Notes: generated by a model not told the origin, from the sequence alone. Shown: positions 11,063 to 22,574, counted from the first letter of the stretch. The stretch is DNA of 64,000 nt from an uncultured Clostridia bacterium (GCA_934130355.1 CAKOXV010000003.1:2655-66654); one strand, 5' to 3'. Program-made: numbers and translations.

Positions 11063-14000
11063 CTACTTTACATAAAGTGTGAAACGCGAACCTATACTGT
11101 AATTAGTATAGGTAGATGTACTGTAAAAGCGAAAGCTGGCCGTATAATTACTATACATACTATAATAACCACCGCGGTACACTCGGTACGTAGAGGCGTT
11201 CGCCTCTTGAGTCCATTCTAGAACGTTTGAACTAATATCAAACATATTATTTATGTAATCACTTCCATATTTTCCAGTTACAGCTCTAGAGTTTTCATGA
11301 TTTCCTATTACTGTATGAACTTTATTTGCTTCTTCTCCTGTCAGTACCCAGTTAAGCATTGCATCCCATTGACTACCAAAAATCATTGTTGATACTACAT
11401 CTGAATCACCTGAATATGGATTATTACTATTTATTCCACTTTCTTGATAATAATACATATTATACCAATTAGTACTTGCCATTGGTGTTTGTCCCTTCGT
11501 AGAACTTATTATTCCTTTAGATGGTAGCGATGTTTCATATCTCGCTATCCAAAATCCTCCATATTTTTCAACTGATTTTACCATGTCTGTATATTCTTTG
11601 TTCATATATTCTCCAAATTCATTTACAGAATTAAAACCTAATATGTTTTTATAATAATTTTCAGAAGCATCATACAATGTTCCACTATTTATATACTTCC
11701 AGCCTAATTGTGAATTACTTCCAGTAATTAAACTTATTTCTCTGTAACCAGTAGAAGTTCCTACTAAATTTCCTGTAGATCTTACATAAGATCCTGTTTT
11801 ATAGCCCATTGCAAAATTATATAAAATTCCTTCATAATAACTTGAATCTGTTGTTGCATAATCACCTTGTAACCTTGCCATTGGCTTATATGTATTTGTA
11901 CTTGAACTACTACTTGCTAATTCTTTACTTCTAGATGTATCATATATTGCATCTTTTACAGGAACCCATACAAATTCATCACCATTTGTTATAGAATTTC
12001 CTTTATTATCTTTCATTCTTTTTATTACTAAACCATTTTTTATCTCATTATACAAATTGTTAACTGCAAATCCTGCAGGTATTGTTGCTTTGTCTCCATT
12101 TGAATTTGAATATTCTGTTTTGGTTTCGTAAATTTCCGAATAAGTTTCTAATTCACTTACATTAAAACTATATATTGAAGTTCCTAAGTTTACTATAGTT
12201 TCATTTCCATCTTCATCTGTTACTTTTTCAGTTCTTTCTAGAATATTTACACCATCAGTTACTCGTGCATATACAATGTCTCCAACTGATAATCCATCTA
12301 CTTGTACACCAGTTTGAGGATTTACTAAAGTAGTCTTTAACCATGTTCCATTTTCATTGTAATTTGCTCCCTGTTTTCCTATTTGATATTCTATATAATA
12401 ATTTTTAATTTCATTAAATGAGTCTTTAAAGTCTAAATATATCGTTCCATTTCCTTCTGTTCCATATACTGCATCTTCATATATTTCAGATGTATCTATT
12501 TTTGTTATTGTAGTTGTTGCTGTTCCTAAATCTATCTGTGCTGTTTTTCCTGTATGATCATATACTGTAACCTTCATGTCATAAGTTGTACCTTCATTTA
12601 ATACTTCATAAGTAAAAGTATTTCCATAATTCGTATAATCTTTATAATTAATATAATTTCCAGATTCATCTGTTGTACTACTTATACTATATACATATTT
12701 TTTTATACCTGAGCCTACTTTACTAATTTTTTGTTCTTGATTATCTTCTGTTTCATTTGTATTGTCTGGATCATAAGCTGTAACTTTTACTGTTATGCTA
12801 TTTGATGTTGTATATGGTTCAATATAAATTATATTTCCATCTTTATCTATTCCATTTTCTCTTTTTGTTAAACTTGGATTAACATTATCAGTTTCATCAA
12901 TGACGTATAAAGCCATTCTTGTTCCATAATATGCTGATGTTCCTCCAGCATCATATACTATACATGAGATTGAAGAACTATTTGAATTATAGTTTCCACC
13001 TCTCAATATTTTGGCGTAATTCGAATATGCTCCCATAGTAAATTCTGATACATTTCCTGATAAATCAAATATATTATTTATAATATCTGTCGTTGTTTTT
13101 CCTGTATTAGCAATTGCTGTATGATATCCAATTGTTGTATCTGTTAGTAAATTACTATTATCATTTCTATATATCCAATTTAGCATTGCACTATATTGAG
13201 AATTCCACATCATGCTTGATACTACACTTTTGGAATTATAATATGGATTAGTTGAATATCTATTACTATCTTGATAATAATTCATATTATACCAAGAAGC
13301 ATTTCTATATGGTGTTTTATTTTGCTGTGATTGAACCTTTGTACCATTTACACTTGTTTCATATCTAGCTATATAAAACCCTCCATATTTCTCTACCGAA
13401 TTTATCATATTATAATATTCTTCATTCATGTATTTTCCAAACTCTTCTGCTGAATTATACCCTGCTCTTGTTTTATAATAAAATTTAGTTGTATCCCTAT
13501 TGGCAGTTTTTATTATAGTATTCTCTATATCCCAAGTAAGTATAGCTGAACCAGCAGTATTACCTGTTACTAAAGATGGTTCTCTATAATTATATGTTCC
13601 CATTTTATATGACAAATTGTATGAAAACACTCCTGTATTTGATATTGCATAATAAATTCCCTCATAATATTTACTATTTTTTCCTGTTTGGTACATAGCC
13701 ATTGGAGTATAATTCTCTGTAATACTTGTAGAGGAATTTTTTATAGCATTTGGTACTGGTACCCACACAAATTGATTTCCACTACTATCTTGTATTACTA
13801 ATCCATTTTTTATTGTATTTATCGAACTTGATACTCCAACACTAAATCCAGCTGGTATATATGCTATATCCTTGTTCGTATCTTCATATCTACTTGTTGT
13901 TGAATATTCACTTGAAAATTCTTCTGAATAGCCATCTAAATAAAATACAACATAATCCTCTTGTTCATTACCATTACTATCTGCAAGTTTAGCAAGTATT

Positions 14001-21965: not shown

Positions 21966-22574
21966 CTACCAAATTTTTTCTTTATTTTGACTTCTAAGTC
22001 TTTGTAGTTCTTCTTCCATTTCTCTTGTTTTTTCTTCTTTTTGTTTCATTATTTTATTTTCATTTCTTGAATCAACAATTTGTATTATAAGTAAAAATAT
22101 TAAAGGTATTGAAATAATTACTATCATTCCAATTGGTTTTTGCATTGATATTGCCAAATTTCCAAGTCCAGCTATTCTGAATTTATATATTCCTTCAATT
22201 TGATTTTCTAAAACATAATCAGGATCTTCTATATTATTTTTATCGCCCTTTGTTTTATATCTTATTGTTCCATCTTCTGTAATAACTTTTTCAACTATTC
22301 TATGTGTAATTACTTTTTCATTACTTGTTTTAAAAGCAATAATGTCATTTTCTTTTAATTCCTTTGTATCAATTTCTTTAACTATTACTAAATCTCCAGT
22401 CATTATTTCTGTTTCCATTGAGCCTGATAGTACTATGAAAGGTTTCCAACCAAAAAATGATGGTATTTTTTCTTTATGTACAAAAGAGTCAACTAATATA
22501 ACTCCACTCACAAATATTACGAATACTAAGCAAATCACCATTACCACAATTATTATTTTCTTTAATTTTTCCAT
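21966..22574 (-). CDS. sipW: signal peptidase I, SipW (ER/archaeal) type, second paralog
   Basis: LSGSMETEI, ITHRI and TKGDKNNIEDP boxes, with N- and C-terminal TM helices. Confidence 0.85.
   Translation of the reverse strand: MEKLKKIIIVVMVICLVFVIFVSGVILVDSFVHKEKIPSFFGWKPFIVLSGSMETEIMTGDLVIVKEIDTKELKENDIIAFKTSNEKVITHRIVEKVITEDGTIRYKTKGDKNNIEDPDYVLENQIEGIYKFRIAGLGNLAISMQKPIGMIVIISIPLIFLLIIQIVDSRNENKIMKQKEEKTREMEEELQRLRSQNKEKIW

Follow-up and report, generated by a model that had tools for sequence, protein, structure and literature searches.

A candidate SipW/TasA-like fibre operon with a giant adhesin diversified by a retroelement in an uncultured gut Clostridia bacterium

Diversity-generating retroelements (DGRs) are densest in the human gut and, to our knowledge, their cellular targets outside Bacteroides and phages are mostly uncharacterized. 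A 64,000-nucleotide (nt) stretch of DNA from an uncultured Clostridia bacterium (GCA_934130355.1 CAKOXV010000003.1:2655-66654), called the window below, raises the question of where such a target is displayed. It carries a DGR whose target gene encodes a giant protein of 2293 amino acids (aa), and this gene follows genes for two SipW-type signal peptidases and several small TasA-like proteins. Is the giant protein an adhesin of a fibre made by this locus, and does the DGR rewrite its binding end?

An initial annotation, made from the DNA alone, had read the giant protein as the hypervariable tip or adhesin of a SipW-dependent fibre. This overall interpretation survives in our analysis, as both the fold of the small proteins and the linkage in related genomes support it. 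We consider it very probable that a SipW/TasA-like fibre operon is present here and that its giant adhesin is DGR-diversified and bears a SipW-type signal. The complete explanation, in which a SipW-dependent donor-strand fibre of the TasA/BsaA type carries a giant lectin adhesin whose last domain is varied by the cis-encoded DGR, is judged moderately probable.

The retroelement and its giant target

The DGR is complete and active. The strongest evidence for its activity is that near-identical strains vary almost solely in the variable region (VR) of the giant gene. The strains compared were the four other sequences in the 90% cluster of the window protein (P0369-P0372). P0370 and the window protein are unlike at 17 residues, and 14 of these lie within the last 45; the only residue that differs in P0371 is also inside the last 45. 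P0369 is identical to the window protein apart from a frameshifted VR, and P0372 is a 196-aa fragment that ends short of the VR.

The VR and the template repeat (TR) align over about 100-120 nt, and all the mismatches (16/16) are at TR adenines. Both end 3' in the same GC-rich 17-nt sequence, GGTTCGCGTTTCACACT, which is found nowhere else in the window (0.01 chance matches expected). The TR is rich in AAY codons. The accessory variability determinant (Avd) matches PF22296 (bAvd) with 63.3 bits at a cut-off of 40 and scores slightly below the cut-off of NF033474 (74.2 bits; cut-off 80), and the reverse transcriptase (RT) matches RVT_1 (E 1.8e-19). The VR is at the 3' end of the 2293-aa gene, the DGR target of the initial annotation. 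A second VR was looked for in the window and none was found. The features of this part of the locus are as follows.

11063-17944, minus strand: giant protein, 2293 aa, rich in immunoglobulin (Ig) and fibronectin type III (Fn3) domains
14489-15511, minus strand: lectin-like domain 1 (aa 812-1152), undiversified, from internal repeats and motifs
12869-13879, minus strand: lectin-like domain 2 (aa 1356-1692), undiversified, from internal repeats and motifs
11066-12103, minus strand: lectin-like domain 3 (aa 1948-2293), which holds the VR, from internal repeats and motifs
11073-11192, minus strand: VR, covering the final ~40 codons of the giant gene
10991-11010, minus strand: GC-rich hairpin ~55 nt 3' of the giant's stop, candidate DGR target-recognition hairpin
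10611-10964, minus strand: Avd
9596-10627, minus strand: DGR RT
9443-9562, minus strand: TR
9302-9447, minus strand: RT-14 structured RNA (Rfam RF02921), adjoining the TR on its 3' side
8947-9282, minus strand: p111, 111 aa, small OB-fold/SSB-like protein
8475-8984, minus strand: p169, 169 aa, single-pass membrane protein
8427-8472, minus strand: intrinsic-terminator-like hairpin, 19-bp stem and U-tract, closing the unit

The RT-14 RNA is matched over its full length (114.3 bits, gathering score 48.1, E 2.3e-16) and is probably the spacer/priming RNA of the DGR. The hairpin at 10991-11010 keeps its stem, GGTGGG/CCCACC, in the related locus L013 (L-numbers designate loci of the comparative survey described below), where the loop is different. 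It is a candidate target-recognition element by analogy with the Bordetella phage DGR. The small protein p111 matches SSB below cut-off (E 2.5e-4). All surveyed loci with an RT also have p111, which may thus be a DGR accessory protein so far unrecognized. The RT itself is at most 37% identical to the RTs of a phage collection. Among the related loci, its identity tracks the type of target, at 81% to the RT of L013, 64-70% to other giant-linked RTs and 61-65% to the RTs of short pilin-like targets. Also, one DGR-bearing relative (L011 11590-12006 and L012 9146-9562) has a 138-aa protein with a MutS_I domain match between the giant gene and Avd.

The giant protein begins with a signal peptide, a junction shared with the small proteins and a disordered stretch of ~20 aa; numerous Ig/Fn3 domains follow, and three further domains are lectin-like, with an FGE/C-type-lectin motif. 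Its description as Ig/Fn3-rich was borne out by a model of residues 1-345 (predicted local distance difference test score, pLDDT, 86.5), which has a signal helix at residues 2-26, a low-confidence segment at 27-48 and three complete Ig/Fn3 domains. The structural matches of this model were fibronectin (Fn3), titin and bacterial adhesin stalks, not TasA, and a search of the giant protein against Protein Data Bank (PDB) sequences returned nothing. Three repeats of ~340 residues each end in ...NV.EWT...R..RGG...G.R..LY, and only the last of them holds the VR. The motif D..SNV.EWT...RVYRGG is present in lectin domain 3, and a weak profile match to SUMF2 (1y4j, E 0.63) falls at the canonical motif D..GNV.EWT...RV.RG. 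Pfam FGE-sulfatase matched one of 14 lectin-domain sequences weakly (E 0.013). Domain 2 ends in an Asn/Ser-rich stretch, RGGNYNSNSSSIS..., which resembles TR-encoded sequence and may be a fossil variable region.

SipW peptidases, signal junction and TasA-like subunits

All the open reading frames (ORFs) of the initial annotation, from the first SipW through the 2293-aa protein, were found on the minus strand where it had placed them. Its extent of 11063-22574 holds for these genes, but the unit runs further: 22574-8475 on the minus strand is a single operon-like unit that reaches the hairpin at 8427-8472, the sole minus-strand terminator match within 8000-23500. The features upstream of the giant gene are as follows.

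22652-22679, minus strand: best sigma-70-like promoter match on this strand, TTGAAA-16-TATAAT with TG, 11/12 positions, upstream of sipW1
21966-22574, minus strand: SipW1, endoplasmic reticulum (ER)/archaeal-type signal peptidase I, 202 aa
21291-21899, minus strand: p202, 202 aa, presumed major TasA-like fibre subunit
21174-21283, minus strand: two stem-loops with U-tracts 3' of p202, candidate partial terminator/attenuator
20288-21157, minus strand: p289, 289 aa, transmembrane protein with a TasA-like domain, candidate membrane anchor or terminator
19641-20273, minus strand: SipW2, ER/archaeal-type signal peptidase I, 210 aa
19058-19663, minus strand: p201, 201 aa, TasA-like minor subunit, paralogue of p202
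18498-19032, minus strand: p80 and p92, a single TasA-like minor-subunit gene split by a 1-nt insertion
17963-18517, minus strand: p184, 184 aa, small secreted protein

Promoter-like sites are no commoner in the region than in shuffles, and the site upstream of sipW1 is a consensus match alone.

The claim of two SipW-type peptidases stood as to type and not as to equivalence with Bacillus SipW. SipW1 and SipW2 scored 98.3 and 93.3 bits, respectively, against the archaeal/ER-type signal peptidase I model TIGR02228 (cut-off 51.85), and just 24-27 bits against the bacterial signal peptidase model TIGR02227 (cut-off 47). The equivalog model of Bacillus SipW, NF046067, gave 111 bits for SipW1 and 120 bits for SipW2. 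Because both scores are under its cut-off of 190, the two proteins are considered relatives, not equivalogs, of Bacillus SipW. The translation of SipW1 shows the SGSM, THR and GDxN motifs. Both sipW genes sit among the genes of their presumed substrates, and the same is seen in relatives.

Five proteins, including the giant, had been reported to end their signal peptides with a common junction, and all five strings (STYARYTTS, GTYSRYTST, ITFSQYRMT, IVYASYINN and ISYARYVLN) were seen in the translations. The motif [ST]-[YF]-[AS]-x-Y, located after the hydrophobic core, is common to p202 (STYA|RY), p201 (GTYS|RY), p80, p184 (IVYA|SY) and the giant (ISYA|RY). Among 140 members of the p202 family, T27 and Y31 are invariant and A29/K30 almost so. 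The junction is also the best conserved part of the giant's first 345 residues, with a mean identity of 0.80 vs 0.46-0.67 elsewhere, and R27 and Y28 of the giant are invariant among 13 homologues. The mature TasA chain in 8aur begins at A28 of GTWA|AFND; residues 28-38 form the TasA donor strand, and F29 is buried in neighbouring subunits (PMC9674648). From the layout shared with TasA, we therefore infer that the junction doubles as a -3/-1 cleavage site and as the start of a donor strand whose +2 position is aromatic. The proposed likeness to the SipW-cognate signal of TasA and TapA thus holds for the layout, [GS]T[WY]A|x[FY], yet not for membership of the TIGR04088 class (see below), and the window junction reads as a distinct variant. 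One relative, L026, has a near-canonical junction, TTYAWFTTQ, that scores 17 bits on TIGR04088 (cut-off 19).

The fold of p202 was predicted with AlphaFold (AF2) from 36 sequences (pLDDT 80.6). The model comprises a signal helix, a low-confidence N-terminal stretch (residues 27-45) and a beta-sandwich. In a Foldseek search of the PDB, the TasA fibre solved by cryo-electron microscopy, 8aur_A, was the top match and the sole one at E <= 0.001. As modelled, p202 has a TasA-type beta-sandwich with a free N-terminal strand. This agrees with its first description as a TasA-like protein with a strong ribosome-binding site (RBS), which was confirmed as AAAGGGGGG. The leaky-looking terminator described for this gene was also recovered as two stable hairpins with U-tracts (minimum free energy -31.8 kcal/mol, z = -5.9), and 0/200 shuffles folded equally well. 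The strong RBS and the partial terminator fit an excess of the major subunit, whose ratio they would raise.

The p202 family is large. It includes 60 close relatives of p202, and a profile search collected 7594 clusters at 50% identity (E <= 0.001), for which no Pfam or NCBIfam model exists. Distant members, 27-30% identical to p202, also adjoin S26/S24 signal peptidase genes. In one of these loci, the peptidase-linked member is followed by small genes and then by a gene of more than 1400 codons.

Three other small proteins of the locus are related to p202 by sequence profiles. p201 aligns end to end with the p202-family hidden Markov model (HMM; E 2.5e-17), and the rejoined p80 and p92 match it with E 1.2e-5. 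The C-terminal domain of p289 aligns with the p202-family profile (hhalign 97.5%, E 5e-12) over columns 77-217 only, from the 'IAPG' strand to the C-terminus, and has no signal, junction or N-terminal donor strand. This supports the initial reading of p289 as a transmembrane protein with a TasA-like C-terminal domain. Its N-terminal part consists of a cytoplasmic tail, a single transmembrane helix without a cleavage junction and an Asp/Asn/Lys-rich low-complexity spacer of ~100 aa. The annotation had counted three further small TasA-like proteins after the second SipW; the 201-aa protein is a clear paralogue and the 80/92-aa product is one split gene, but the 184-aa protein shares the junction alone. 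Translation of p184 probably begins at 18472, at an ATG provided with an RBS. In the surveyed loci, the window included, 12 p184 ORFs (9 distinct sequences) directly precede the giant gene. No sequence homology to TapA was seen beyond a 13-bit match of p201 to TIGR04087.

The split gene has its shift site, CCA-CGG-AAG-TAA, at 18790-18801 (minus strand), where the 1-nt insertion yields ORFs of 80 and 92 aa. The split CCW-CGG-AAG-TAR is kept in the window, L001, L013 and L014, whose proteins are 68-84% identical. L005, L006 and L008 have CCW-GGA-AGT at this point and an unbroken reading frame. Only one codon is rarer than CGG in the window (0.31 per 1000), and GGA, the codon in the +1 frame, is very frequent (39.8 per 1000). 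Because the p92 half is conserved yet has no RBS and, in L014, no ATG, the CGG site is suggestive of a programmed +1 ribosomal frameshift.

Another possible explanation is that the TasA-fold proteins are not fibres here but spore coat, surface layer or chaperones of the giant, in which case the unit would be a cassette for export and maturation of a giant adhesin. TasA was first described as a spore-associated protein (PMC9674648), spoIVA adjoins the locus in relatives, the small proteins show no camelysin family membership by sequence, and four to five different small proteins are many for a simple fibre. However, the best structural match of p202 is the fibre form of TasA, and a strong RBS with its own partial terminator is expected of a major structural subunit. 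Like donor-strand subunits, p202 has a disordered N-terminal segment when modelled as a monomer, and the groove domain of p289, which has no strand of its own, would be sensible only in a strand-exchange polymer. A role other than a fibre is therefore considered improbable, and a TasA-like fibre is the reading that we prefer.

Linkage in related genomes

ORFs were called in 92 loci and searched with the window proteins, and sipW and TasA-like genes were counted within 8 kb upstream. Homologues covering at least 71% of the giant's length numbered 27. A scan of species-representative genomes with a lectin-domain profile found more than 465 relatives, and the 79 loci kept were almost all from metagenome-assembled genomes of uncultured gut Clostridia (human, rabbit, chicken, goat). 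Lectin proteins with a Y-A/S-R/K-Y junction had sipW or TasA-like genes upstream in 15/17 cases, representing ~12 independent lineages. None of the lectin relatives with prepilin-like or other N-termini stood beside such genes (0/57).

The two exceptions among the 17 are L026 and L027. L026 has a DGR, the near-canonical SipW-cognate signal described above and no sipW within 3.6 kb. In L027 (1748-11059), the first domain of a 3103-aa giant is a full p202-family domain (E 8e-14, positions 4-217 of the profile), signal and junction included. Its body is 37% identical to residues 514-2293 of the window protein and has the same triple-lectin composition. More than 10 further protein clusters open with a p202-family domain followed by other domains. 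The middle stretch of the L027 giant draws InlB B-repeat (Flg_new) proteins in homology searches; they swamped the search with its N-terminal part, which gave few useful N-terminal relatives. A second large junction-bearing protein, of 1815 aa, is encoded downstream of this giant (L027 13557-19004).

The locus in L013 has the same gene order as the window, with both sipW genes, p289 and the split minor-subunit gene, and its giant is 62% identical to that of the window. The full DGR arrangement, in which Avd, RT, TR and p111 lie between the giant gene and p169, was found in the window and at least five further lineages (L013, L011/L012, L018, L019 and L023). TR/VR mismatches are A-only in these DGR-bearing loci; the exception is L019, in which an indel throws the ungapped comparison out of register. 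The DGR is absent from L001-L009 and L014. In the closest of these DGR-less relatives (L001, L014 and L005), the VR-equivalent has decayed to AT-rich codons and lost its GC-rich ends; in a fourth, L006, the GC-rich ends are retained. Because of the decayed VR-equivalents, loss and not gain of the DGR is indicated, and the simplest reading would be an old association of the DGR and the giant with repeated loss of the cassette.

These data bear on whether the DGR and its target are a mobile cassette that landed beside an unrelated sipW/TasA-like locus. A DGR-bearing giant without a sipW locus exists (L010), and many giants in sipW loci have no DGR. Against a chance landing, junction-bearing giants are linked to sipW or TasA-like genes whether a DGR is present or not, the gene order recurs at 37-72% protein identity, only the Avd-RT-TR-p111 block comes and goes, always at the same place, and VR decay points to loss from an ancestral linkage. 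Fortuitous adjacency is rejected on the synteny and VR-decay data and is extremely unlikely. The linkage to sipW, which the initial annotation had inferred from adjacency in a single sequence, is thus regarded as genuine.

The giants of L011 (2839-11502) and L010 (5335-13779) share 55% identity along ~2650 residues, starting at residue ~223/166 and reaching the C-terminus, and differ solely in the first ~165-220 residues. The L010 giant is prepilin-like and has no sipW locus; the L011 giant is of the junction type and lies in a sipW/TasA-like locus. Both carry a DGR. The same Clostridia encode hundreds of prepilin-like proteins of 380-630 aa with a single lectin domain (L029-L092; e.g. L039 9425-10828, L057 9629-14453 and L069 92-4225), some of them in tandem arrays of three. 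They belong to the same lectin domain family as the giants, and a subset adjoins Avd-RT-TR-p111 DGRs with A-only TR/VR mismatches. They differ from the giants in size, in their type IV pilin-like N-terminus and in never being found beside sipW/TasA-like genes. In L048, the prepilin assignment has a match to TIGR02532 (17.5, cut-off 16.3) and to GspG (E 1e-8). In L010, L017, L039 and L078, Glu5 is missing and the prepilin matches are below threshold.

Proposed attachment of the giant protein, known systems and genomic setting

TapA has an unstructured N-terminus and a complete Ig fold, and it starts TasA filaments by strand donation, for which residues 44-57 suffice (PMC10151520). The criteria for a TapA-like protein were taken from that paper. 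The model of the giant's N-terminus shows the same architecture: a signal, an unstructured stretch and a self-complete Ig fold. Since its N-terminus copies TapA in this way, attachment at the end of the fibre is the best model for the giant, and the comparative data lend it support. We give about even chances to the more specific proposal of a giant physically joined to the fibre through strand donation.

The locus may work as follows. After export through Sec, SipW1 or SipW2 would cleave the five junction proteins behind the small residue of the [ST]-[YF]-[AS]|x-Y motif seen in the translations, as happens to TasA at GTWA|AF. The freed N-terminal strand, with its +2 aromatic corresponding to F29 of TasA, would enter the beta-sandwich of the next subunit. 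p202, given its modelled fold, would polymerize in this manner, and p201 and p80/92 would join it as minor subunits. The giant, which has no TasA-like groove, would donate its first strand in the manner of TapA and occupy one fibre end. The groove domain of p289 would receive the final strand, and its long spacer would tether the fibre to the membrane, a role proposed from domain content. Error-prone reverse transcription at TR adenines would then rewrite the VR of lectin domain 3, the outermost lectin domain; the TR/VR pattern and the strain variation point to ~16 altered codons on the presumed ligand-binding face.

A different view of the giant is that the TasA-like fibre or matrix is real and the giant a co-regulated, SipW-processed passenger, that is, a free, wall-retained or membrane-tethered adhesin, perhaps held by an uncleaved signal anchor or by p169. 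No TasA-like domain was found in the giant with the p202-family HMM or by structure matches. The sipW-bsaA-bsaB-bsaC locus of Clostridium perfringens also ends in a large protein, the vWA protein BsaC, which was found in the secretome and not reported to be fibre-bound. p169, for which comparison with the p202 family and Pfam gave no match, was found after the giant lectin gene wherever sequence downstream of it was available (24 ORF matches), including the giants of L010, L026 and L027, regardless of a SipW-type or prepilin-like N-terminus or of a DGR. Because it follows every giant, p169 could be the giant's real partner. L026, with its junction-like giant and DGR and no nearby sipW, would also fit a passenger. 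Other observations argue for incorporation into a fibre. The junction and first mature residues are the best-conserved N-terminal segment of the giant and copy those of the polymerizing subunits, including the +2 aromatic, and the N-terminal architecture equals that of TapA. Moreover, the L027 giant fuses a whole TasA-like subunit domain to the same body, and other relatives bear a prepilin-like module, which is another signal for incorporation into a fibre. A passenger role is thus possible but rather unlikely, and a giant attached to the fibre end remains our preferred reading.

Several further results also weigh against the TasA-type fibre and its giant adhesin as proposed here. None of the small proteins matched a Pfam or NCBIfam family, and the TasA/camelysin (Peptidase_M73) models had no match to any window protein at E <= 0.1. 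Among 140 p202-family members, none matched Peptidase_M73 (PF12389) and no relevant Pfam match was seen. A scan of the small proteins with TIGR04088-04090 found nothing, and p202 gave noise only when compared with PDB sequences by phmmer or by profile. When the family profiles were aligned with one TasA sequence by hhalign, the last (C-terminal) strands alone aligned, which was not significant (P = 0.003). None of the five junction N-termini matched the 34-position TIGR04088 model even at E <= 10, and the TasA N-terminus scored 42.1 bits (cut-off 19) as a control in the same run. The match of p202 to 8aur_A (E 9.3e-5, probability 1.0) has modest TM-scores of 0.40/0.35, and a TasA-like fold of p184 is not supported by its alignment with the p202 family beyond the junction. 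The FGE/C-type-lectin fold usual for DGR targets is weakly indicated for the VR domain by motifs and weak matches. A short form of the locus (L001-L007) has neither p289 nor SipW1, and an anchor role of p289 is therefore not general. Finally, the Fisher test of 15/17 vs 0/57 gives p = 7e-14, which is nominal because the loci compared are related to one another.

The closest parallels are the tapA-sipW-tasA operon of Bacillus subtilis and sipW-bsaABC of C. perfringens. The first also encodes an ER-type signal peptidase among its substrates, and its TasA fibre is the best match of the subunit fold, with an N-terminal strand freed by cleavage and an aromatic at +2. TapA resembles the giant in its unstructured N-terminus and the complete Ig fold that follows. 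The locus studied here differs in having no Peptidase_M73/TasA or TIGR04088 membership by sequence, in its two peptidases and four to five small proteins, and in a strand-less membrane-anchored subunit. Unlike TapA, its last protein has 2293 aa, three lectin-like domains and an attached DGR. The C. perfringens locus is clostridial, starts with sipW, encodes TasA-like subunits and ends with a large signal-bearing accessory protein, and assembly of the BsaA matrix polymer has been proposed to occur by donor-strand exchange. Isopeptide bonds between BsaA molecules (N35, K74, E56) lock this polymer. BsaC, in contrast, is a vWA protein of ~70 kDa and no Ig/lectin giant, and the system has no DGR. 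Because the sequence tests for Peptidase_M73, TasA, TIGR04088 and the SipW equivalog were negative, we place the locus outside the curated families of both systems, yet it would work like them.

A parallel for the DGR is found in the type V pili of Bacteroides. There too, in a gut bacterium, a DGR rewrites the C-terminal lectin-type adhesin domain of a protein whose gene lies directly downstream of the fibre subunits, and the fibre is assembled by strand exchange. A DGR-diversified fibre tip is thus not new as an idea, since the Bacteroides pilus tips precede it. The two fibres are unrelated, as those of Bacteroidota consist of lipoprotein pilins on the outer membrane and use type V assembly. 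Their DGR targets are tip pilins of ordinary size, often on integrative and conjugative elements or prophages, whereas the locus described here belongs to the Gram-positive-lineage Clostridia, uses SipW processing and has a giant multi-lectin target on the chromosome. The classical DGR targets, Mtd of the Bordetella phage and TvpA of Treponema, are alike in the VR at the extreme C-terminus, the AAY-rich TR, adenine-specific mutagenesis, the presence of Avd and RT and the hairpin after the VR. The giant differs from them in its putative lectin fold, which has weak sequence matches, and in three tandem lectin-like domains of which the last alone is diversified, and its RT is distant from phage RTs. 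Searches of a paper library found no paper joining diversity-generating retroelements with SipW or TasA, nor, from 2018 on, with camelysin, which agrees with the initial statement that no such coupling had been characterized.

A broader proposal combines several of these points. The giant lectin body would be a portable, DGR-evolvable module placed on two fibre systems by swapping its N-terminal plug, with a SipW donor strand or whole TasA-like subunit for one and a prepilin-like module for type IV-type pili for the other. The CCW-CGG-A +1 frameshift would dose one minor subunit. The locus would then be the first DGR tip on a Gram-positive strand-exchange fibre and would illustrate a general rule for the display of DGR targets. 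Taken as a whole, this proposal is tentative and somewhat unlikely.

If the preferred explanation is true, the p202 family (~7600 clusters at 50% identity) would be TasA-like fibre subunits tied to SipW peptidases. Gut Clostridia would retune the binding end of a fibre by means of a DGR, convergently with the type V tips of Bacteroides, whose envelope and fibre are unrelated. Which fibre presents a DGR target would depend on the N-terminal module, giving a testable model for the surface display of giants. The locus also gives handles on organisms that are not yet cultivable.

A sortase gene (Pfam Sortase, E 1.8e-19) is present at 25304-25996 on the minus strand, 3 kb upstream of the locus and past a DNA ligase gene. 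No sorting signal was noticed in the locus proteins, and the giant's C-terminal end is the variable region. The genes flanking the locus encode DNA ligase (identified from its translation), FolD, DprA and an H+-pyrophosphatase. Because these are housekeeping genes, the operon is considered chromosomal and not an obvious prophage. The uncultured gut Clostridia bacterium is of low G+C content, which is ~27% over the whole 64-kb window.

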